Positions 48,754 to 63,301 of a stretch of DNA of 64,000 nucleotides are shown here, one piece after another (position 1 is the first letter of the stretch; the number at the start of each line of letters is the position of its first letter). The stretch is from NCBI GenBank assembly GCA_049438185.1, contig JBMTJI010000005.1:2316-66315 (forward strand), written 5' to 3'. Position numbers and translations under genes: made by a program. Under the pieces are notes generated by a model. The model had not been told where the DNA came from, did not search any database, and saw only the letters and a program-made list of their open reading frames with translations. The DNA is from Candidatus Poseidoniaceae archaeon (GTDB taxonomy: Archaea; Thermoplasmatota; Poseidoniia; Poseidoniales; Poseidoniaceae).

Positions 48754-51522
48754 ATGGAGAACCCATTCAATGCCTTAACTTCAGTATCTGTCACCCGCCC
48801 CAAGGCAACCATTGCATCGATCTTGGTCATTACAATCGCTCTTTCATCAATGGCTCAATTCATCGATTTCGATAACAGCGAAGATGCATTTTATCCTCAA
48901 AACGATACGACGGAACTTCTGTATGAAATTGAGGAGCGTTACCAAGCTTCGTTGGATTTCATACGCATCATCGACGAAATTGAACAAGGGGACATGCAAG
49001 ATTCAGCAGCATGGGTACAATTTGCGGCTATTGAGGCCGACCTTTCCACGAGCGAATACTTTCTCCAGTATCAAGAACCACTCTTTGGTGGAAGCGCAAC
49101 CAGTGGCCCCGCAGGTTCCGCTTTGTTTTGGCTCAACACACAAGATCCAGTTACAACACAGCCTTGGAGAGATACACTTTCTCAACACCTTGCGAATGTC
49201 ACCGTAGTGAGCGAAGAGAATTTCACGTTTGCACTCAGCGATTTGCAAGGAGCCATTGGTGCCATTCCGGCGCCTGTTGCTCCCTCGCCCCAAGCATTGC
49301 GTGATTGGAATCCAGGCATGGTCACCGAATGGCAGCAACGAATGGATTCAAATCTCAACATCAGCGAGGAACTTGGTGCAATGCTTGGTCAGATACAGGC
49401 ACTTCAACAAAGTCGCACAAATCCTGCCGAGATTGGCGCTATTGCAGCAACTACAGGTCCATTGCAAGGCGTCCTTGGAACATACATCGGATTGCAGAAC
49501 ATCGATCATCGCGGGAATATTATCGCTACTATGCCTGCTGAAGACAAACAAGATCCTTGGGCGAGTGATGGCCCTATTCTCATCAGTTTGGTTGTTTCAA
49601 CCGACCCAACCAATTACGAACAGGCGGAAATCATTGGTGACGTTCAAGAGCGCATTGTGGAATGGACGGAAGCGAGCCTTCCAGAGTTAAGAAATGCAAC
49701 AGGTGATGACGAGTTACGCGTCTTCTCATTCTCGGCATTCCAATACGAACAAAGTGCAAACATTGGCAAGGAAATAGGTATCCTTACCTCATTGGCTTTG
49801 GTCTTTCTCACCGTTCTTTTGTACATCAAATTCCGTTCTGTTCGAGATACTGCTTACGTGATTGGCTTGACAATCCTCGCCATTGCAGCAACCTATGGAG
49901 CAGCTGGCATTTTCAGATTGACCTTTAATGCTGCAATGAACAGTATTCCAATTCTCCTCTTGGCGATTGGTGTTGACTACGGCATCCACGTCGTGACAAG
50001 GATACGAGAAGTGATGCAAGAGATGGAACGCGAGAATCCCCAAGGACGAGTGACACTGAAGGATTTTGATCATGAATTACGCATCAAAGCAATCCGTTCA
50101 GGCGCGGTTTTGACTTCAGCAGCCTTGGTAATCGCTATTTTCACAGATATGGTCGGTTTCCTTTCGTTCAGACTCTCTTCACAGATGTTCCTTGTCAACT
50201 TTGGAACTGTAATCGCCCTTGGACTCTTTGCCATCTATGTGTTGAGTATTTCACTCCTACCCGCGCTGATGACAGCCCTACCGTCGAAGGCTTTACCGCT
50301 TCACAAATCGGGTGCGATGAACGAGACGAAACTAACCGTAGGAATCGGAAAAATGGCGGAACATCAGGCTTCAATCGTTTTGCTTGCAGCACTCATTTTG
50401 TCCATGCCAATGGCCTATGGGATGAGTACACTTGAGGTCGGTTTTGATACTGCAGATCAATTTGATGATTCGCTGGAAGTTGTTCAAGATTTCCTCATGA
50501 TTGCTGAAGAATTCCAAAGCAGTCCAACACCTTTGTATGTTGTTCTTGAGGGGGACATCCTTTCTGAACAAGGGATTGAAGCCTACAATACTGCGATAGC
50601 AACATTGAGCAGTACAGAAGGCGTCACAGGTGTTCCAACTGGACTTTGGGATACATTGGAATCCGAACGTGGACGAAATCCAACATTGGATGGTCTGCTC
50701 GAAAATCTGACGACGGCAAATGGATTCGTTGAACTTGAAACGTACCTCCTTGAAAACGCCACTGGAAGAGATTTGGTTGACTCGTTGTTGTACACAGATG
50801 GACGTCAAACCATCATTTCATTCCAAGCCAACACCCTTGATTGGCAAGCAACTGTTGATTTTGAGGAAGCGCTCTCTGCATCGTTGCAAGATGCTTCGAT
50901 GACCAATGAGGGCGATTATACCATGGAACTGAGTGGCCGCGCACTCATTCTTGCACAGATTAGTGCAGATGTTGCTATTTCCGCCATCACTTCCACAGCC
51001 ATCGTCGCCTTCACGATTCTGTTCGTGTTGATTTTGATTCAATTCGTACGAACACAAAGTGTGACACAAGCAGTTCTCCGAGGTGGCGTCATCTGGATTC
51101 CTCTGATCACGGTCGTTTTGTGGGTTTACGGTATCATGGGACTTGCCGGATATCAGCTGAATTCACAGACCGTAACCATCGGCGCTCTCGCATTGGGGTT
51201 AGGCGTTGATTATGCAGTGCATTATGTCATTCGCTTAGAGGAGGAAGTCGAACTTCATCCAGAGAAAACTGTGGCTGAATGGACCTCAAAAACAACCGCC
51301 ACAACGGGGCGTGCAATGCTTGGTGCTGCGATCAGTACGGCTGGTGGTTTCGCTATTCTCAACTTCTCTGGATTGTTGCCATTGCGATTGTTCGGCCAGG
51401 TGTTCATCGTCGCCATTAGCCTTGCAATGGTCTCGAGTGTAACACTCCTACCAACCTTGTACGGGCCATTCCTGCGTCGCGATGCAAAACAACATCTTCC
51501 GGATGGGTATGAGCAAGAGTAA
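48754..51522 (+). CDS. RND-superfamily exporter (MMPL/SecDF-like, two 6-TM bundles with two large extracytoplasmic domains)
   Basis: 922 aa. Two hydrophobic blocks are each preceded by a large soluble domain, with the GxxxDYGxH-like motif (GVDYGIHV / GVDYAVHY) in both halves. Confidence 0.75.
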   Translation: MENPFNALTSVSVTRPKATIASILVITIALSSMAQFIDFDNSEDAFYPQNDTTELLYEIEERYQASLDFIRIIDEIEQGDMQDSAAWVQFAAIEADLSTSEYFLQYQEPLFGGSATSGPAGSALFWLNTQDPVTTQPWRDTLSQHLANVTVVSEENFTFALSDLQGAIGAIPAPVAPSPQALRDWNPGMVTEWQQRMDSNLNISEELGAMLGQIQALQQSRTNPAEIGAIAATTGPLQGVLGTYIGLQNIDHRGNIIATMPAEDKQDPWASDGPILISLVVSTDPTNYEQAEIIGDVQERIVEWTEASLPELRNATGDDELRVFSFSAFQYEQSANIGKEIGILTSLALVFLTVLLYIKFRSVRDTAYVIGLTILAIAATYGAAGIFRLTFNAAMNSIPILLLAIGVDYGIHVVTRIREVMQEMERENPQGRVTLKDFDHELRIKAIRSGAVLTSAALVIAIFTDMVGFLSFRLSSQMFLVNFGTVIALGLFAIYVLSISLLPALMTALPSKALPLHKSGAMNETKLTVGIGKMAEHQASIVLLAALILSMPMAYGMSTLEVGFDTADQFDDSLEVVQDFLMIAEEFQSSPTPLYVVLEGDILSEQGIEAYNTAIATLSSTEGVTGVPTGLWDTLESERGRNPTLDGLLENLTTANGFVELETYLLENATGRDLVDSLLYTDGRQTIISFQANTLDWQATVDFEEALSASLQDASMTNEGDYTMELSGRALILAQISADVAISAITSTAIVAFTILFVLILIQFVRTQSVTQAVLRGGVIWIPLITVVLWVYGIMGLAGYQLNSQTVTIGALALGLGVDYAVHYVIRLEEEVELHPEKTVAEWTSKTTATTGRAMLGAAISTAGGFAILNFSGLLPLRLFGQVFIVAISLAMVSSVTLLPTLYGPFLRRDAKQHLPDGYEQE

Positions 51523-52713
51523 TCATAAGACTGGACGTTTGGTTTTTCCAGATCCTCGATGTCCGATCATGCGTACCATTTCCCAAGGCATACTGCCTCG
51601 TTGTTGCTCGGCAGAAATGAGTTCATCAACGGATTTGGACCAATTCCACTTCTTTCTCCAATAACCGAGAAGTTCTCGTTTACGAGAAGCATCGCATTCT
51701 ATCCATGGAACAACATCGCTTTCCAAGGATTTGAGAAGATCAAGGTGATTTTCCTTGGTAGCCAGGTTCAATTCCTGTTGTTGCGATTCATCCAACGGAG
51801 TCGTTGCCGGTCGAGTCCAACGAGCATGCCCACTCGGCAACCAGGTCGTATCTGGGTCACTCGAATCCGTCAATGCAGAAAGACCAGCATTGAGAACTGA
51901 ATGTTCAATCAAGAGACTGACTGGCCAAAGATACACTGGAAAGCCTTGTTGAATAGCCGTTAATCGCTTCAGTTGATTTCCTTTTAGACCAACTGTTCGA
52001 CCCACTGGAATCAAGTTCGTTGGATTCAAAACGTACTCGACAGCACAAGGCATCATTGGCGAACCGTTTCGCTGGTGCTTACGCATTAATTTTGAAAACG
52101 AAGTGCTGACAAACTCAGGGAAGGCGAGGAGACGGTGCGTTTTCTTTCCCGCAAACGGTCGGATTGTTGGCAACAATGTTGACCAATCACGTTGGAGACC
52201 GCCTACCTTTGCAGTGTTTTTCATGGTTTTATGGAAGGCATAATGCACTGTTGAATGCTTAGGAATGTCGTATTGATCGAGAAGGTTTTCTGCTAATTTC
52301 ATCGTCTTGCCCATGTGCGCGTCGTGTTTTTTTGTCGCAAACCAACCACCACTCTTCTTCACCTTGAGACTTGGTCGTTTTGTTTCAATCACCAACACCT
52401 TGCCTTCTTGTTGAATCGAACGTTGGATTGAAGCGTTTTCGAGCAACGATTCAAAGGAACAAAATCCGAGCTCGAGTAAATCATCCAAATCCCAATTTTC
52501 GACGAATGGAGAACTGTTCTTCCGTCGCGTTGGATCAACGGATACGGTGCGATCATGATGAATTACAAGCTGATCGTCCTTGGTCAAACGAATGTCAAAT
52601 TCAATCCCATCGAACAAGCTCATCGCGTGAACAAGGCTTTCGAGCGTGTTCTCTGGAGCCTGTTGATACATCGCCTTCAAGCCATCCAAATCATTGTAGT
52701 TCTTGAAGTCCAT
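51523..52713 (-). CDS. Glycerophosphodiester phosphodiesterase (GDPD)-like protein with apparent circular permutation
   Basis: N-terminal APENTLESLVHAMSLFDGIEFDIRLTKDDQLVIHHD carries GDPD motifs but lacks the leading HRG. The extreme C-terminus ends MVRMIGHRGSGKT. Track start 52737 is TTG. ATG at 52713 is preferred. A stop lies immediately upstream in frame. Confidence 0.6.
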   Translation of the reverse strand: MDFKNYNDLDGLKAMYQQAPENTLESLVHAMSLFDGIEFDIRLTKDDQLVIHHDRTVSVDPTRRKNSSPFVENWDLDDLLELGFCSFESLLENASIQRSIQQEGKVLVIETKRPSLKVKKSGGWFATKKHDAHMGKTMKLAENLLDQYDIPKHSTVHYAFHKTMKNTAKVGGLQRDWSTLLPTIRPFAGKKTHRLLAFPEFVSTSFSKLMRKHQRNGSPMMPCAVEYVLNPTNLIPVGRTVGLKGNQLKRLTAIQQGFPVYLWPVSLLIEHSVLNAGLSALTDSSDPDTTWLPSGHARWTRPATTPLDESQQQELNLATKENHLDLLKSLESDVVPWIECDASRKRELLGYWRKKWNWSKSVDELISAEQQRGSMPWEMVRMIGHRGSGKTKRPVL

Positions 52714-52770
52714 GACAACGAAATTGTCATGAATCAAGAGGCTGCTGCCTCGTAGGCAGTAAACCTCTAT

Positions 52771-54252
52771 ATGGGCAATCTACGGAGAACGGCTATGAGT
52801 CCATGGACGGTCATGATGAGCATGATCTTGTTCTTGACTCCACTCATATGCTATCTTTTTTCTCTGCATGATAAGGATTCACGCATAAAATATGGAACAT
52901 GGTTCGAAACAATTCGGAAGCATCGTTACTATCTGCATGCGTTGGGATATGTGGTCATCATTCGATGGAAAAATCTCACGGATGGGCTAAATGAACCCAT
53001 CAAAGAACGTGTTGGTCATTGGACGGATGCTGTCCATGGGATTGAAGGGAATGTGGTTCTTTGGATTCAAAATGTCTTCTATAATGATGCACTTACTTCA
53101 TTTCTCAACTTCCATTACCTCTTCGTTTACCTCTTCCTCATCTATGTCACAACCGTCTATTATGCCTACATGGGCGACAGAGATATGACAGACAAAGTTA
53201 CGTTGAATTATCTTCTTATCTATGCCATTGCAGTCCCATATTATCTGTTCTTCAACGTTGAAGTTACATCATCCTGGATACCGGGGATGGATGCTTTGTT
53301 GTATCACGATGGATGGTATTCAACGTTCTATGCAACTCATGACCCACTTGACAATGCCGTACCCTCGCTGCACGTAGCCATTCCATTTGGAATACTGATG
53401 CTCAATTATCTTCATGTCAAGTCCAAAGGCCAGACCCTCAAGGAATGGCGTCACTATCGCTATCATACGTTCATTCTCATCAATACAATCATTTTCATTT
53501 TCGCTATTCTTTATCTCGGGATTCATTGGACCATCGACATACCTCTTGGAATGCTCGTCGGGGGAATCGGTGCTTTGTTCATCCACCATATACAGCCTCG
53601 GTTAAGGAACGACCATGGTTCTATGTTCAAAGGTGTGAATCGAGAGAAGGTTTGGAAACACGTTCTTGTTGAAGGAACCATTCTCTTGATTCTCTTTGCT
53701 GCAATCATGGGTGCCGTGAATCACCAAGATGCAACCAATGAGGAACAACCATCATTTCGCCTCGGACCAGGAGATACCGTTCAAGACATTCTTGCTGAAA
53801 TCGGCTCAGAAGATACGATTACCACAACAATTCGCAACATGGACGATTCTATCGTGCTTGAATATGCGATTATCACGGTCGAACTCGCCGAAGATGGATT
53901 CTCAGATTTTGGTATTGACTGGGAACGTATGCAGGCATTAGCCAACCAACATTGCGAACAACAAGTTACCTGTACAGCAACCCTTCTCCCCAATGAAAGC
54001 ATTGATCTCAACCTTCGATCACCAAACGTCTACACGTTTGTGTTCTTGCATCACACTGGTGACGAAGGTGTCCTCGAAGTCAAAGTCGAATCGACGTATA
54101 AACACGCAGAAAATTCCATGACAAACGCTGTAGCACTTTCGCTTCCGTCGCTTTACATCACTGGATTTGTTGTTTACAGATTGTATCGACTGAACAACAA
54201 TGGTCGCAAATGGTACGATTCACACCCATCCCATACTTGGGAAGAAGAGTGA
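52771..54252 (+). CDS. PAP2-superfamily-like polytopic membrane protein with about 200-aa C-terminal soluble domain
   Basis: Multi-TM N-terminal half with NAVPSLHVAIPFG (PAP2 C2/C3-like SxH motif). Confidence 0.45.
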   Translation: MGNLRRTAMSPWTVMMSMILFLTPLICYLFSLHDKDSRIKYGTWFETIRKHRYYLHALGYVVIIRWKNLTDGLNEPIKERVGHWTDAVHGIEGNVVLWIQNVFYNDALTSFLNFHYLFVYLFLIYVTTVYYAYMGDRDMTDKVTLNYLLIYAIAVPYYLFFNVEVTSSWIPGMDALLYHDGWYSTFYATHDPLDNAVPSLHVAIPFGILMLNYLHVKSKGQTLKEWRHYRYHTFILINTIIFIFAILYLGIHWTIDIPLGMLVGGIGALFIHHIQPRLRNDHGSMFKGVNREKVWKHVLVEGTILLILFAAIMGAVNHQDATNEEQPSFRLGPGDTVQDILAEIGSEDTITTTIRNMDDSIVLEYAIITVELAEDGFSDFGIDWERMQALANQHCEQQVTCTATLLPNESIDLNLRSPNVYTFVFLHHTGDEGVLEVKVESTYKHAENSMTNAVALSLPSLYITGFVVYRLYRLNNNGRKWYDSHPSHTWEEE

Positions 54253-54282: not shown

Positions 54283-55101
54283 ATGACCATGGCGTCCTCT
54301 TCATCCTTGGAAGACGCTGTCACTGAATTGATGGATTCGCCCGGTGGTCAGCTCCTCAATTCAGTACGGGCTTATCTCCGTCGACGAGCAACAGCACTGA
54401 TTGGACTGTTCCTAACGGGATTGGTTCTTGGCTTTCCAATCGCCAAACGTATCGTGACGTGGTTGATTGAGGAGCAAAGGCTTCCAGATGATGTCAATGT
54501 CATTGTGACATCACCTGTTGAATTCCTTATGCTTCAAATTCAACTCTCTGCGAGTTTTGGTCTCTTCCTCGCATTGCTGTTGGTCATCACAGAAACAACC
54601 CTTCGAGGCGTACGTCATCCACTCGTTCTCGAACGATTCAACGAAGTGAACATTCGACCTCCAAAACCGAGTTTCTCATTTTTCATTGCCATTGGTTCAA
54701 GTCTTCTGTTAGCCATTTGTGGAATTCTATACGCTTGGGAATTGTTGACGCCGATGCTGTTTGAATATCTGAGCAACGATGCTCAACAAGCAGGACTCTC
54801 AACGCAATGGAAGTTAGGAGCCTATGTTGGATTTATCCTGAATCTCTGCATAGCAAGCGCCATCGGTTTCCAAGCACCTGTCTTGACGCTTCTCGCATTA
54901 CGCATTGGATTGGTTGAACCACCTACGTTGGCAGCCTATCGAAAGCATATCTGGTTTGCAGCTTTTGTCATGGGTGCAATCTTCTCGCCACCAGATCCAT
55001 TGTCGCTATTTCTCGTCTCATTACCTGTGATCCTTTTGTTTGAGATAGCATTGCTCGTTCATCGGATCATGCCGATGAAATCAACTTCGGCAAACTCTTG
55101 A
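54283..55101 (+). CDS. tatC: Twin-arginine translocase subunit TatC
   Basis: LNSVRAYLRRRATALIGLFLTGLVLGF start with six TM helices. Confidence 0.7.
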   Translation: MTMASSSSLEDAVTELMDSPGGQLLNSVRAYLRRRATALIGLFLTGLVLGFPIAKRIVTWLIEEQRLPDDVNVIVTSPVEFLMLQIQLSASFGLFLALLLVITETTLRGVRHPLVLERFNEVNIRPPKPSFSFFIAIGSSLLLAICGILYAWELLTPMLFEYLSNDAQQAGLSTQWKLGAYVGFILNLCIASAIGFQAPVLTLLALRIGLVEPPTLAAYRKHIWFAAFVMGAIFSPPDPLSLFLVSLPVILLFEIALLVHRIMPMKSTSANS

Positions 55102-55948
55102 CGATGACAGGCATATGTCCTGGCCGGTGACCACCTCTGAAGGAATGAAAATCAGACCCTACGGTTACGCCTAGATTGTATTGTTCTGCAAGTTTCCAAA
55201 TCCGATAACGTTCCTCATCGGATTGACTACGATGAAAAGCCTCAATCGCATCCACCTTCGATGCCTTGAGATGCTGAATCAACGTTTCATAATCCACACC
55301 GTAGTAGCGTGGGTGAGCCAATGAAGTGATACCCCCGGCGGCATGAACCAGTGCACTTGCTTCTGCAAGTGACGGCTTTGGTCGCTCAACATTGCAAGGA
55401 CGACCATCGCCCAACCATTTCTCAAAGGCTTCATCCATAGACTCAACACAACCAGCATCCACCATTGCCATCGCTAGGTGAGGACGCCCAACGCTCCCTT
55501 TGGCTCGAGAGAGGACATCGTCCGCTTCAATAGCCATCCCAAATGCATTGACCTTGTCGATCATCTCAAGCATACGAGGGACTCGGTCTTCATGCAAAGG
55601 GGAGAGCCATTCCTCGAATTTTTTCAATCCCTCTTCAATCGGTTCGTTTGGAAAATAGGCCAAGAGGTGCCATGAAGAGGGAGGTCGTTGACGTGCATTT
55701 GCTTTGAGGAGTTCATCATTCCATGGAAGTTCAACATCGCAGGTCAATTCAACACCAGGTATGAAAGTAATACCTCGTTGTGATGCCGCAATTCTCGCTT
55801 CATCCCAGCCTGCGATGGTATCGTGATCGGTGAGAGACCAAACGGTCACAGATTGTTCTGACATGGCATCTGCGAGTTCGTCGACCGAGAGTGATCCATC
55901 ACTGTGTGTCGTATGGCAATGCAAATCAAACGATGAACTCCACATCAT
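55067..55948 (-). CDS. PHP-domain metal-dependent phosphoesterase
   Basis: FDLHCHTTHSDGSLS N-terminus (HxH...SDG). Confidence 0.75.
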   Translation of the reverse strand: MMWSSSFDLHCHTTHSDGSLSVDELADAMSEQSVTVWSLTDHDTIAGWDEARIAASQRGITFIPGVELTCDVELPWNDELLKANARQRPPSSWHLLAYFPNEPIEEGLKKFEEWLSPLHEDRVPRMLEMIDKVNAFGMAIEADDVLSRAKGSVGRPHLAMAMVDAGCVESMDEAFEKWLGDGRPCNVERPKPSLAEASALVHAAGGITSLAHPRYYGVDYETLIQHLKASKVDAIEAFHRSQSDEERYRIWKLAEQYNLGVTVGSDFHSFRGGHRPGHMPVIVKSLPKLISSA

Positions 55949-56825: not shown

Positions 56826-57692
56826 TCATGAACTCAAGTATTCTGCTGCTGTGACTGTATTGGCCATCAGCATGGCAACCGTCATTGGACCAACGCCACC
56901 CGGAACGGGCGAAAGGAGGGATGCATGTGTTGCTGCATCAGGATGCACATCACCAGCAAGCCTCCAACCACGCTCACGGCTTGCATCATCGACTCGATTG
57001 ATGCCAACATCGACAACAACAGCCCCTTCCTTGACCCAATCTGATTGAACCATTTCAGGTCGACCCACTGCAGCAACGATGAGATCGGCTTGTTGACACT
57101 CGAATTTGGCATCCTTCGTTCGAGAATGAACAACAGTCACGGTTGCGTCAGCCCCACGAGCGGCAAGCAACAGTGCTTGAGGCATTCCAACGTTGAACGA
57201 GCGTCCGAGAACAACCGCTTTCTTTCCAGTCAAATCAACTTCAGCCCATCGCAGCATTTCCATCACGCCCGAGGGTGTACACGGCACCATACCATCGCTT
57301 CGTCCTTGAACCAGACGTCCAAGATTCACCGGGTGAAAACCGTCAACATCTTTTCGTGGATCGATTAATTCTGTAAGTGCTTCTTCATCCATATGTTGAG
57401 GAAGAGGTGATTGAATCAGGATACCATGCAAATCATTTTGCTCGTTCATGGAACGAATGTACTCTGCAACAATGGATTGATCCGTATCTTCAGGTAATTC
57501 GACATGTGTTGAGCGAATTCCGAGTCGCTCGCAGGAACGAATTTTGTTGTTGACGTAGACATGGGAAGCTGGATCATCCCCGACAATGATGACTGCGAGA
57601 TGTGGTTGAACAGGGCACGCTGCAATACGCTGCTTGAGACGCTGTTCCAAATCAGCAGCACATGCTTTCCCGTCGAGTCGAGCAGCGCTCAT
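56826..57692 (-). CDS. folD: Bifunctional 5,10-methylene-tetrahydrofolate dehydrogenase/cyclohydrolase FolD
   Basis: GRPEMV, VVDVGINRV and PVPGGVGPMTVAML motifs. ATG at 57692 (MSAARLDG) is preferred. The track ORF to 57797 would overlap the tRNA. Confidence 0.85.
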   Translation of the reverse strand: MSAARLDGKACAADLEQRLKQRIAACPVQPHLAVIIVGDDPASHVYVNNKIRSCERLGIRSTHVELPEDTDQSIVAEYIRSMNEQNDLHGILIQSPLPQHMDEEALTELIDPRKDVDGFHPVNLGRLVQGRSDGMVPCTPSGVMEMLRWAEVDLTGKKAVVLGRSFNVGMPQALLLAARGADATVTVVHSRTKDAKFECQQADLIVAAVGRPEMVQSDWVKEGAVVVDVGINRVDDASRERGWRLAGDVHPDAATHASLLSPVPGGVGPMTVAMLMANTVTAAEYLSS

Positions 57693-57742
57693 GACCCAAC
57701 CAAACGCTTCAACGGTTTGAGCATTCTTGTGTGAGGGTGTAG

Positions 57743-57819
57743 TGGAGCCAACGGAGGGACTCGAACCCCCGACCGTCTGATTACAAATCAGACGCACTAC
57801 CAGACTGTGCTACGTTGGC
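57743..57819 (-). tRNA. tRNA-Thr (anticodon UGU), 77 nt including encoded CCA
   Basis: Folded by hand as 7-bp acceptor GCCAACG/CGTTGGC, D-stem GCAC/GTGC, anticodon stem TCTGA/TCAGA, loop TTTGTAA, 5-nt variable loop, T-stem GGGGG/CCCTC with TTCGAGT loop, discriminator U then CCA. Confidence 0.85.
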
Positions 57820-60498: not shown

Positions 60499-63258
60499 TC
60501 ACTCGGTCGTTTCGCCTTCTTCCGAAGCGGCCATGGTGAGGTCGTCGTCTTTCTTACCGGCCATAGCGAAGTGCATGATGACTAGAGCGATACCACCCAC
60601 GTAAAGCAACAATCCAACGTAATCGAAGCCATTGTCAAAGTTCATCCACCAGCCCATGAGTTCTTGGTTCTGGACGATGGCACTTTCCATGTCTTCAGCA
60701 TCGCCGTCTTCAATCTCTGAACCCTGAACAATTTGGAATACAGGTTGGAGGTCAGACATCGCAGGAGTTGATGCGAGATCGGTTCCTGTGCGTGTGTCAA
60801 GGTAGAAGGTTGATGTCGAATCACCAGCGATGATGAGGCCGGAGATTTCTTCAGACTTCATGTTAATTTCGCTACCAAAGTAAACAGGAAGTGCAGGTGT
60901 CATTGCATCAAGGAGCGAGTAACTCTTGATGAGTTTCGCAGTGATTGGGTTTGTTGTTGCATCGACAGATGCAGAGCACACATCGACTGGGATGTCCTTG
61001 ACTTCACCGTCACCGGTGCATGTCACTTCAGTAACAGCGTAGCCACCAGCGTTGACTTTGTCACCGTCACCAGTGAGGAAACCACCAGTTGTTCCATCAA
61101 GTGTTTCAACAGTGATGAGACCGAACGTTGCATTCATCATGTTAGTGTTGCGCCATGAGAGTTCGTTTGATCCGTCCTCAGAGACAGCTTCACCCTTTTC
61201 ACAGTCTGCATTGTGTCCAGTGCACATAACGTAGACAGAAGCAGGTCCAGTGGAGACGCCACCGGATCCGTAGTAGGTTTCGTTGGTTTCCAACGTAGCC
61301 CATCCTGCGGATGGAGCGGTTGGGTCTTCAGCGACCATCATGCTGACTGGGTCAAACCATCCATAGAGCCAATTGTTGAGTGGCATAGTCATGTATGGAC
61401 CTTGGCTACCGAAACTGTCAACGAGGAATCCTGGGACGAAGTCACCATAGATGACACTCATCATCAGGGTTCGGAGTGCGTTTGCAGCGTTTGCATCGAC
61501 TCCATAGAGTGCAGAAACGGTTGTTGCGTTCCATTCCATTGGTGCACCAGGACCCATGGTTGCAAAGTCGATTGGAGGCGTCATACCAGTAAGTTCACCG
61601 TACAGGAAGAGCGTTGCACCTGTTGTGGTAGTAAGTCCAAGATCACCGTAGAGGATGTTTCCTGACACTGCAGCGTCGAGAGCAATCGAAGGCGCACCTT
61701 CCGAGGCAGGTACAAGGGCAGTACCCCAAGCACCACCGAGGTTGAGGCTGTTGTCGAGGTAGCCACCGTTGACTGGATCTTCGTTACCGAATGTTACGTT
61801 GACGAATTGTTCCGCAGTCATGGTACCGGTTCCACCGAGGAGTGCCATTGGAAGAGAGGAGGCGCTGGACAACCAGCCTCCAGCCCATGTTGCGATAGCG
61901 CCGTATTGTGTTGGATCGAGTCCGTAAGCGCTCATTGCATCGGCTGCTTCCATACCCATGAAGTTAGCAAGTCCAAAGGAAGTACCTTCCTCATTGGTTG
62001 CGAAGAGACCCATTGGATCATCTGTGCCTTGTCCTCCAAAGAGAAGGCCCATAGCTAGAGCGTTGTCGATATCGACACCGAGGTAGTTCATGAGTCGAGT
62101 TGAAGCATCAATGGCCATTGCATCAGCGAACCAGTCGTCATCGGCTCCACCGTGAATCATCGAGAAGGTTCCTGCAACACCGAAACAAATTGCAAAGTCC
62201 ATTGCTATTGTAGCGTTGATGTCAGAGGGATTCAAGAATCCCCAAACGCCTGCACGCTGAAGAACACCAGTCGTGAAAGCGGGGCTGTTGGCGAGATCGG
62301 CCGATACAGAAGCATAGTCGTAATCCTCTGTTGGCATTGCATCGCAGTGTCCAGCAAGCAAAAGAACACCTTGCATGTCTGTGAGTGCGGCATTTTCTGT
62401 TCCAAACATAGCAGTGTCGAAAGCCGTCGAAAGGTCACCAATTGAGGCGTTTCCTGCGAAGGTAATTGCAGACTCGTTACCAGGACCGCCTGCTTCAGCA
62501 AGTTGCAATCCTTGAATCGCCGTAGTGTAATTAATCATCTCCCCGTTACCCGTCATGTTGTTCATTTCGGATCCATTGATGAGAGCGAAGTAGTCATTAA
62601 ACGCATCATACCATCCAACACCAATCATCATCGAGGCAGTGGCAGCATCAACTGCTGCACCACCGGTCATAGCACCGGCTTGGATGCCCATGTAAGACAT
62701 CTCAAGGTCATCTGCAGTCTTCTTTGCAGCGGAGAAGGATTCCAATTCAATGGCCATGACACCAGCAGAGAATCCAACCTTGGTCAAATCCATGACCCCT
62801 TCAATAGCCATTCCAGTTGCTCCAACAACTTGTGGTTGGAACGGAATGTTGAGTTGTGTGATTGGTGTGTTACAATCCTCAGGATCGTCCATTGCACACG
62901 TGAATACCTTGGATTCATCGTAGGTGAGTGTACCCGCATCCTTGTCGAATGCGATAATGTTTCGAGTGGTTGTAATCTCGTAATCAAACGGACCCAACTT
63001 CTCGTAGACAGGAGCTTCTCCAGCCATTACAGCATCAGCATTGGTCAAGTTCCAAGCGTAGTAACTGCGGTCAGAGGTGGACGATGCCCAGTCTTCTTCA
63101 GCGGTCGTACAGTCCGAATCAGCACATGCTGAATCGTATGGATAGGTTTCAAAGTTGTCTTCAACTGCGCCTTCAACCATACTTGTTGCAATCGGTGCTA
63201 GTACGACCAAATTCAGTAGAATCATGACTGCGCCAGCGATTAATTTTTCATTTCCCAT
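60499..63258 (-). CDS. Large Gly/Ala/Met/Thr-rich cell-surface protein with signal peptide and C-terminal TM anchor
   Basis: ATG at 63258 (MGNEKLIAGAVMILLNLVVLAPIATS). The track start 63276 is GTG. C-terminus VGLLLYVGGIALVIMHFAMAGKKDDD. No catalytic motifs recognised. Confidence 0.55.
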   Translation of the reverse strand: MGNEKLIAGAVMILLNLVVLAPIATSMVEGAVEDNFETYPYDSACADSDCTTAEEDWASSTSDRSYYAWNLTNADAVMAGEAPVYEKLGPFDYEITTTRNIIAFDKDAGTLTYDESKVFTCAMDDPEDCNTPITQLNIPFQPQVVGATGMAIEGVMDLTKVGFSAGVMAIELESFSAAKKTADDLEMSYMGIQAGAMTGGAAVDAATASMMIGVGWYDAFNDYFALINGSEMNNMTGNGEMINYTTAIQGLQLAEAGGPGNESAITFAGNASIGDLSTAFDTAMFGTENAALTDMQGVLLLAGHCDAMPTEDYDYASVSADLANSPAFTTGVLQRAGVWGFLNPSDINATIAMDFAICFGVAGTFSMIHGGADDDWFADAMAIDASTRLMNYLGVDIDNALAMGLLFGGQGTDDPMGLFATNEEGTSFGLANFMGMEAADAMSAYGLDPTQYGAIATWAGGWLSSASSLPMALLGGTGTMTAEQFVNVTFGNEDPVNGGYLDNSLNLGGAWGTALVPASEGAPSIALDAAVSGNILYGDLGLTTTTGATLFLYGELTGMTPPIDFATMGPGAPMEWNATTVSALYGVDANAANALRTLMMSVIYGDFVPGFLVDSFGSQGPYMTMPLNNWLYGWFDPVSMMVAEDPTAPSAGWATLETNETYYGSGGVSTGPASVYVMCTGHNADCEKGEAVSEDGSNELSWRNTNMMNATFGLITVETLDGTTGGFLTGDGDKVNAGGYAVTEVTCTGDGEVKDIPVDVCSASVDATTNPITAKLIKSYSLLDAMTPALPVYFGSEINMKSEEISGLIIAGDSTSTFYLDTRTGTDLASTPAMSDLQPVFQIVQGSEIEDGDAEDMESAIVQNQELMGWWMNFDNGFDYVGLLLYVGGIALVIMHFAMAGKKDDDLTMAASEEGETTE

Positions 63259-63301
63259 AGGTGTTCCCCAACTCACTTGGTGAACGGTTTACTACTTAAC
63301 T

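Follow-up and report, generated by a model that had tools for sequence, protein, structure and literature searches.

A probable natural circular permutation of the glycerophosphodiester phosphodiesterase barrel in Poseidoniales archaea

The stretch of DNA analysed here (the window) comprises 64,000 nucleotides of contig JBMTJI010000005.1 from a Candidatus Poseidoniaceae archaeon (assembly GCA_049438185.1). On its minus strand lies an open reading frame (ORF) for a protein of the glycerophosphodiester phosphodiesterase (GDPD) family, which is flanked by a divergent gene for a membrane protein of the PAP2 superfamily and a convergent gene for an MMPL/RND-type membrane transporter (Table 1). The maximal GDPD ORF (51523..52737, minus strand) has TTG 52737 as start and would encode 404 amino acids. 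The start is more likely ATG 52713 or ATG 52671, giving proteins of 396 and 382 amino acids, respectively. The shorter version begins with MYQQAPENT, which is the N-terminus common to the whole family in alignments of homologues. The extension of 14 codons that begins at ATG 52713 is open in the closest clade only and is closed by an in-frame TGA in one homologous locus (L015); in a DNA alignment of homologous loci, substitutions within it show no bias towards the third codon position. Residue numbers refer to the 396-residue form starting at ATG 52713.

The predicted protein starts directly at the helix that opens with 'PENT', its N-terminal region reading ...MDFKNYNDLDGLKAMYQQAPENTLESL..GIEFDIRLTKDDQLVIHHD. 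It ends with ...VRMIGHRGSGKTKRPVL, the C-terminus reading ...PWEMVRMIGHRGSGKTKRPVL and being followed by the stop codon. An in-frame stop at 52777-52779 lies 14 codons upstream of the TTG and leaves 13 sense codons before the first start. No HRG is encoded in any of the three upstream frames, and in all six frames of the window the motif [hydrophobic]2-HRG occurs a single time, at the C-terminus of the GDPD ORF. No GDPD-like sequence was found beyond the GDPD stop, which lies directly against that of the convergent MMPL gene. The preliminary description of this DNA, which had the ORF opening at the PENT block without a preceding HRG and shortly after an in-frame stop, and which located the canonical N-terminal GDPD motif at the C-terminus, was therefore correct in each of these respects.

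Table 1. Positions of the GDPD gene, its parts and adjoining features in the window
Feature	Position	Strand	Basis or remark
Permuted GDPD coding sequence	51523..52713	(-)	396 aa from ATG 52713; stop codon 51523-51525
New N-terminus, M15-YQQAPENT-T23	52645..52671	(-)	Chain begins in the β1-α1 loop, at the canonical 'PENT' start of helix α1; P20, E21 and N22 invariant
Strand 'GIEFDIRL' with E38 and D40, the canonical β2 ExD metal ligands	52585..52608	(-)	2pz0 alignment, invariance, model strand 36-43
H52-H53-D54; H53 counterpart of the catalytic His of the 'HD' motif	52552..52560	(-)	Aligns to H59 and D60 of 2pz0; H53 invariant
E110-T-K112, canonical ExK strand	52378..52386	(-)	Invariant residues; model strand 106-111
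Conserved insert of ~90 aa, residues 288-378	51580..51852	(-)	Joins the old C-terminus (β8 'SALTD') to relocated β1
Relocated β1 and catalytic motif, V380-R-M-I-G-H385-R386-G-S-G-K-T-K-R-P-V-L396	51526..51576	(-)	Invariant residues, DSSP strand 382-385, hhalign
Divergent PAP2-superfamily polytopic membrane protein, 493-aa ORF	52771..54252	(+)	Pfam PAP2; likely true start ATG 52795
TATA/BRE (B recognition element)-like element, 'aaacctctatatggg' on the plus and 'CCCATATAGAGGTTT' on the minus strand	52761..52775	.	DNA alignment with three homologous loci
Convergent MMPL/RND-type membrane transporter, 922 aa	48754..51522	(+)	Stop abuts GDPD stop

The Pfam GDPD profile (PF03009) matched the protein with 51.4 bits (cut-off 23.6) over residues 25-102, corresponding to profile positions 6-70 of 244. 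The match thus begins just past the HRG with which the Pfam model opens. In a phmmer search against the PDB, the segment 'PENT...GIEFD...HHD' aligned to residues 22-60 of the Thermoanaerobacter tengcongensis GDPD 2pz0, with the E, D and H of the ORF falling on E44, D46 and H59; a profile of the family retrieved 2pz0 at E 1e-14. In GDPDs of known structure, the HRG, ExD, HD and ExK residues have catalytic roles. The full catalytic set (H385, R386, E38, D40, H53, E110 and K112) is present and invariant in the family. The canonical linear order, in which β1-HRG precedes PENT, was not found: HRG occupies residues 385-387 of 396, and the remaining catalytic residues follow one another in the normal order (E38xD40, H53, E110xK112). 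The protein is a GDPD by hidden Markov model (HMM), fold and catalytic residues, and the linear order is its one departure from the definition of the family.

Homologues of the same long form made up 245 clusters among 5.8 billion proteins, the best 120 of them at 45-92% identity. All that carry a name are from Poseidoniales (Marine Group II), and most have 382-396 residues. In alignments of 20 and of 70 homologues they share the N-terminus M-(Y/W)-x-Q-x-PENT; P20, E21, N22, E38, D40, R42, H52, H53, D54, E110, K112, R113 and P114 are invariant, as are G384, H385, R386, G387, G389, K390 and P394 at the C-terminus. An HMM search run exhaustively over 1.84 billion representatives gave about 15 full-length members of the family at 29-50% identity, and R381, H385, R386, G387 and G389 remained invariant down to 29%. 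The same search also returned proteins of 273-280 residues that start with '..PN(T/S)I..L.WGL.NFDG(V/I)EFD(I/V)R..KD...(V/I)HHD' and end with 'II(A/I/M)HRG(C/T)G'. This short form comprises about 35 clusters (267-284 residues), named Heimdallarchaeota, Kariarchaeaceae or HeimC2, with the endings II(A/G)HRGTGTKG or IxIHRGCG. All of its full-length members are HRG-terminated and none has an N-terminal HRG. When the fetched proteins were sorted by the position of HRG, 197 had it at the C-terminus only and 86 at the N-terminus only, as in canonical GDPDs; no protein had both. We left P0397 (254 residues with 'KHRG' near the C-terminus) out of this tally. It had been considered as a third permuted type and appears to be an N-terminally truncated canonical GDPD.

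The two forms differ mainly in what lies between β8 and the C-terminal strand. In the long form, the insert of about 90 residues holds a 'WLPSGHARW..P...PLD' loop and four helices (residues 309-372, pLDDT 93-97; pLDDT, predicted local distance difference test), with R298 and W299 invariant. It is missing from the short form of Heimdallarchaeota, where about 15 residues bridge the gap instead. Permuted GDPDs of intermediate length, about 332-347 residues, have a shorter helical insert at the same place (P0127, P0130 and, with a GDPD match of about 996 nt, loci L064, L065, L068, L069, L071, L073-L075, L078, L079, L085, L087 and L094), which indicates that linker size is stepped across the clade (about 15, 50 and 90 residues). 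A scan of GTDB species representatives yielded 80 loci, nearly all titled Poseidoniales, Poseidoniaceae, Thalassarchaeaceae or MGII (Marine Group II). Given that it occurs at at least 80 species-representative loci, the long form is a core gene of Poseidoniales. One of the loci (L059, CAXRAI010000032.1) has a permuted GDPD of the Poseidoniales type together with PAP2, TatC and citrate synthase genes and is deposited in a metagenome-assembled genome (MAG) of 'Salinimicrobium sp.' (Bacteroidota); this label is probably a binning error.

The C-terminal sequence GHRGSGKT (51541-51564, minus strand; G384-T391) fits the pattern [AG]x4GK[ST], and motif-scanning programs would report an ATP/GTP-binding site here. 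We rejected a P-loop as coincidental, as neither the divergent members nor the short form keep the Lys and Thr.

Whether the tail corresponds to β1 was assessed by un-permuting the sequences. When the last 23 residues of the window protein were moved in front of M15, the Pfam match reached profile position 1, the His of HRG, and rose from 51.4 to 54.3 bits. For P0239, a short-form protein from Heimdallarchaeota, the same operation extended the match to position 1 and raised it from 44.4 to 46.9 bits; for P0250 the score went from 35.9 to 37.2 bits and the match was extended to position 9 only. Alignment against canonical GDPDs, a check that the preliminary description had proposed, was done with hhalign for the 159-member family and 13 canonical GDPD domains. 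Un-permuting raised the score from 139.5 (E 6e-19) to 155.9 (E 2.5e-21), and the tail segment 'VRMIGHRGs' was placed on the canonical 'vvaHRGa'. The alignment contained a 9-residue insertion that is exactly accounted for by the initiator Met and the new C-terminal tail together and so matches the new termini, indicating that the cut lies in the β1-α1 loop. Loop-like residues are kept at both ends of the protein ('SGKTxRPVL' and 'MYQQA'), compared with five residues in 2pz0.

Structure models were calculated with AlphaFold2 without templates, that of the long form from the alignment of 70 sequences. The long-form model had a pLDDT of 86.5 and a predicted template modelling score (pTM) of 0.86. 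Its strands comprise residues 36-43 (ExD), 49-51 (before HHD), 106-111 (ExK), 155-159, 176-179, 221-224, 260-265 (YxWP), 279-282 (..LTD) and 382-385 (MIGH). They map one-to-one on canonical β2, β2' and β3-β8, and the C-terminal strand alone is left for β1. The short-form model reached a pLDDT of 94.4, and its C-terminal strand (residues 257-260) one of 96-98. In structure comparison both monomer models were confident, closed GDPD folds with the (β/α)8 barrel of the phospholipase C (PLC)-like type. The C-terminal strand would dock between β8 and β2 and complete the active site, as suggested by the high pLDDT, by the DSSP assignment of a strand, which presupposes hydrogen-bond partners, and by the need for eight strands to close a barrel.

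Some observations weigh against this interpretation. Confidence for the tail of the long form is moderate (pLDDT 80 for residues 381-390 and 60 for 391-396), and un-permuting improves the scores only modestly, by about 3 bits with Pfam and 16 with hhalign. The C-terminal 33 residues on their own had no match in Pfam, the fragment being too short. Covariation (mutual information with average product correction, MI/APC) in the 159 members, with an effective number of about 50, is too shallow to prove strand contacts; V380 covaries with the barrel-strand residues 111, 181, 221 and 260 (ranks 12-51), a signal that is confounded by phylogeny and suggestive only. Even so, the gene ends, the order and conservation of the motifs, the fold and the homology of the tail to β1 are established, and we regard this as a genuine natural circular permutation. 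The earlier proposal, a GDPD TIM barrel in which β1 with HRG has become C-terminal, finds support in the invariance of the motif in two families, in the models, in the gains upon un-permuting and in the exclusion of sequence errors. We conclude that the protein is very probably a metal-dependent GDPD, cytoplasmic and probably active, with a naturally circularly permuted (β/α)8 barrel.

The chain starts in the β1-α1 loop at 'PENT' and continues through β2-β8 with E38xD40, H53 and E110xK112. Beyond β8 come the roughly 90 residues of the conserved helical insert and then VRMIGH, normally the first strand, bearing His385-Arg386. This last strand would insert between β8 and β2, close the barrel and complete the usual active site. 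By analogy with the family, a divalent metal would be held by E38, D40 and E110, H53 and H385 would serve as general acid and base, and R386 and K112 would bind the phosphate. The chemistry is probably conventional. As in an ordinary GDPD, a metal-bound phosphodiester would be converted to glycerol phosphate and an alcohol, and the sole difference would be the location of H385 and R386 on the strand that ends the chain. The GDPD sequence contains no signal peptide, membrane anchor or membrane segment, and the enzyme is for this reason probably cytoplasmic.

The genes around the permuted GDPD bear on its role. Upstream neighbours were counted at the 72 species-representative loci with enough flanking sequence. 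A PAP2 gene is the only member of the upstream divergent block in 38 of these. At 15 loci a gene for an ATG22-like transporter of the major facilitator superfamily (MFS) adjoins the GDPD gene and PAP2 lies just beyond, both on the same strand, and at 19 loci the MFS transporter alone is present (Thalassarchaeaceae-type, 36-41% identity). PAP2 is thus found in the block at 53 of the 72 loci and is the immediate neighbour at 38, and the MFS transporter (610-656 residues) is the immediate divergent neighbour at 34 of the 72 Poseidoniales loci (MFS-neighbour loci: L019, L029, L064, L065, L068, L069, L071, L073-L075, L078, L079, L085, L087 and L094; further L055, L058, L060, L066, L067, L070, L072, L076, L077, L080-L084, L086, L088-L091, L093 and L095). 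The ancestral layout may have been PAP2-MFS diverging from GDPD. Downstream, citrate synthase converges on GDPD at 72 of 75 loci. GDPD, MFS transporter and PAP2 form a recurrent trio; synteny is just as strong for TatC, PHP, FolD and citrate synthase. As gene order is generally conserved in these genomes, the trio is weak functional evidence. At the short-form loci of Heimdallarchaeota there was no PAP2, MFS transporter or citrate synthase nearby, and a Pfam analysis of the neighbours of these genes gave nothing informative.

Because of the recurrent divergent MFS transporter, the likeliest role would be to hydrolyse glycerophosphodiesters that are imported or stem from turnover. The pairing of a transporter with a GDPD resembles glpT-glpQ of Escherichia coli and favours catabolism of imported glycerophosphodiesters. 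As a second option, the enzyme could work jointly with PAP2 on the head groups of membrane lipids. The same permuted protein would then be a lysophospholipase D or head-group phosphodiesterase that remodels polar lipid head groups with PAP2, and in this clade also with MMPL, rather than catabolising soluble glycerophosphodiesters. The frequency of PAP2 in the upstream block agrees with such a function, as do the PAP2 and MMPL genes flanking GDPD in the clade of the window, structural matches that include phospholipases D specific for lysoplasmalogen and lysophosphatidylglycerol (7ymp, 8ghi), and an insert rich in conserved Trp, Lys and Arg ('WRKKWNW'). However, the MFS transporter takes the immediate divergent place at 34 of 72 loci and PAP2 is absent from 19 of these, the Heimdallarchaeota loci lack PAP2 altogether, citrate synthase and TatC are just as syntenic, which makes gene order a weak signal, and the GDPD sequence has neither membrane anchor nor signal peptide. 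We consider head-group remodelling possible and the less likely of the two roles.

Other explanations concern the architecture of the protein itself. The C-terminal HRG strand could complete the barrel of a neighbouring subunit in a dimer or oligomer, so that the protein would be permuted in sequence and assembled in trans. The helical arm of about 90 residues in front of the strand could reach another subunit in the long form, and the only moderate pLDDT of the tail would fit such a swap. Yet the short form has merely about 15 residues from β8 to the strand, the strand is modelled there within the monomer at pLDDT 96-98, and the monomer models of both forms are confident closed folds, so that a domain swap appears improbable. 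Even less credit can be given to the idea of a truncated, catalytically impaired GDPD-like protein in which the C-terminal GHRG is an unrelated motif outside the active site, for example for partner binding or regulation. The restriction of the Pfam match to model positions 6-70 and the failure of the C-terminal 33 residues to match any family would agree with it, but the other catalytic residues are all invariant, which is unexpected for a pseudoenzyme. Moreover, profile-profile comparison puts the tail on canonical β1-HRG, the models need the C-terminal strand as eighth barrel strand, and the ending hydrophobic-hydrophobic-x-H-R-G is kept in two families of very different linker length. An artefact, be it a frameshift, misassembly or gene miscall hiding an N-terminal HRG (the sequencing error that the preliminary description had named as its alternative) or a C-terminal HRG that opens a second, truncated GDPD copy, has a negligible chance of being right and both versions were ruled out, since the upstream frames hold no HRG, the upstream stop and the first start are a mere 13 sense codons apart, nothing GDPD-like follows the GDPD stop, and identical termini recur in hundreds of independent assemblies (245 clusters from metagenomes and MAGs; 80 GTDB species representatives).

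The permuted barrel was compared with known systems. Canonical GDPDs of the UgpQ/GlpQ type (PF03009; e.g. T. tengcongensis 2pz0) run from β1 to β8, whereas the window protein has the order β2..β8-β1. Its catalytic His and Arg lie 11-12 residues from the C-terminus, its termini lie in the active-site β1-α1 loop, and its conserved helical insert of about 90 residues replaces a simple C-terminal helix. Among the PDB chains matching the family profile no GDPD appeared permuted; the matches begin at about chain residue 14 onward (mostly 16-56) and so leave room for an N-terminal β1. The short GDPDs from Heimdallarchaeota and Kariarchaeaceae (MCY3413320.1, which is P0239; P0250; HeimC2_44250, which is P0323) have the same permutation point, with a 'PN(T/S)I' start and an 'IIAHRGTG' end. 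They are the best profile-profile match of the window family, and in the model they fold into a GDPD barrel that has a strand at the C-terminus. They differ in their size (267-284 residues), in the linker of about 15 residues without helical insert, in 'PENT' being reduced to 'PNT' and in genomic context. Natural circular permutations of (β/α)8 barrels are known from GH70 glucansucrases in relation to GH13 amylases and from transaldolase in relation to class I aldolases. As in the permuted GDPD, strand order is cyclically shifted in these enzymes; the geometry of the active site is kept in them and would be kept in the GDPD as well. In contrast to them, the present case belongs to the PLC-like phosphodiesterase superfamily, a single strand with two catalytic residues has moved, and the termini lie at the catalytic face. 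A full-text literature search, with incomplete coverage, returned no description of a circularly permuted GDPD or PLC-like phosphodiesterase, and the permuted GDPD is apparently undescribed. In the databases its homologues are called 'hypothetical protein' or 'glycerophosphodiester phosphodiesterase family protein'.

By hhalign, the long permuted family has its closest relative in the short one, and vice versa. They scored 214.5 against each other (E 5e-30, 196 columns), compared with 139.5-139.6 for the long and 117-163 for the short family against canonical GDPDs. This closest relatedness, together with the common cut point, favours a single origin. Most likely the permutation arose once, by tandem duplication and trimming, a route suggested by the copy of the β1-α1 loop kept at both ends, and was passed on to the long form of Poseidoniales and the short form of Heimdallarchaeota. 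Bacterial proteins with two GDPD domains in tandem exist (P0228, P0255, P0260, P0267 and P0268) and render the duplication step plausible; no tandem GDPD that could represent an archaeal intermediate was found among the proteins fetched. After such a single origin, Poseidoniales would have acquired the insert of about 90 residues, or Heimdallarchaeota would have lost it.

For protein evolution, the family offers a clean and widely conserved natural permutation of a TIM barrel in which two linker solutions, of about 15 and about 90 residues, are directly comparable. For annotation, it is a case in which family HMMs see about a quarter of the domain and miss the catalytic HRG, and in which motif checks would wrongly call the proteins inactive or truncated. 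Poseidoniales are among the most abundant archaea of the surface ocean, and the permuted GDPD is core and syntenic in them. In papers on lipid genes of Asgard archaea, which bear on the 'lipid divide' debate, UgpQ/GDPD is considered as one possible origin of glycerol-3-phosphate, and topology goes unmentioned (PMC6737245, PMC9723677). Poseidoniales have been reported to lack the enzyme that forms glycerol-1-phosphate (G1P), G1P dehydrogenase (PMC6461757). The enzymes from Poseidoniales and Heimdallarchaeota represent a distinct permuted clade and hence a specific target for biochemistry on the lipid-divide question. For both Poseidoniales and Asgard archaea, 'mixed membranes' and the stereochemistry of the lipid backbone are under debate. 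A bolder and rather doubtful proposal is that the permuted GDPD is one ancient archaeal invention, common to Poseidoniales and Heimdallarchaeota by descent or transfer, in which His and Arg on a free C-terminal strand give a new specificity or a gate, and that it is dedicated to lipid backbones or head groups and is not a generic scavenging UgpQ. If so, it could work with the MFS transporter and PAP2 encoded next to it, either turning over head groups of archaeal or mixed-type lipids or providing the glycerol-phosphate backbone.

The divergent neighbour in the window matched Pfam PAP2 (PF01569) with 31.5 bits (cut-off 27.2); PAP2_3 scored 17.7 (E 0.0033), below its cut-off of 27. This agrees with the preliminary description, in which the adjoining gene encoded a polytopic PAP2-like protein with an SLH motif. 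The PAP2 signature consists of three motifs, C1 (KX6RP), C2 (PSGH) and C3 (SRX5HX3D). The window protein has a C2-like PSLH (53362-53373, residues 198-201) and a C3-like HWTID (53524-53538, H252xxxD256), both conserved in homologues (the latter as HWxID), and C1 and the SR of C3 are absent from its sequence. As in the PAP2 superfamily generally, these motifs provide a polytopic membrane protein with a His-His-Asp triad. The window protein differs from the superfamily in having about 170 residues of additional C-terminal domain, followed by a terminal membrane segment. In motif pattern it is nearest to the PAP2_3 type of Aur1 and sphingomyelin synthase, a pattern that we take to resemble phosphotransferase-type members. 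No sequence relative was found in the PDB.

An intergenic element of 13-15 nt is conserved in four genomes (the window and loci L013, L014 and L015); the conserved PAP2 ATG 52795 follows about 27 nt downstream. The first ATG of the PAP2 ORF (52771) falls inside the element. In view of this spacing, PAP2 probably starts at ATG 52795 and is translated from a leaderless mRNA. By its sequence the element would be an archaeal promoter (TATA/BRE), and it could also serve the GDPD direction. The divergent arrangement of the two genes had been recognised earlier. The spacer of 33-57 nt given at that time is probably an underestimate, as 81-123 nt separate ATG 52795 from ATG 52671 or 52713.

On the other side of GDPD, the MMPL gene is found at this position in the close clade of the window only, and citrate synthase takes its place elsewhere. 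Compared with most Poseidoniales, in which citrate synthase directly adjoins GDPD, it forms an insertion in the close clade together with a small Rieske gene. The MMPL and GDPD stop codons are 0-2 bases apart, an arrangement conserved in the close clade (48754-51525; L013-L015).

Further features were noted elsewhere in the window. The TatC gene (54283-55101, plus strand) and a PHP-domain gene (55067-55948, minus strand) converge with 3' ends overlapping by 35 nt, as they do in L001, L004 and L013. A 925-residue ORF at 60499-63276 (minus strand) matched the Pfam CD36 family over residues 62-155 (E 4.6e-13, 48.9 bits, cut-off 26.5); CD36/SCARB is a eukaryote-type family of lipid scavenger receptors and unexpected in a Poseidoniales archaeon. 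The longest FolD ORF (56826-57797, GTG start) runs with its 5' end into a tRNA-Thr gene (TGT; 57743-57819, minus strand), and the FolD start must consequently lie further downstream.

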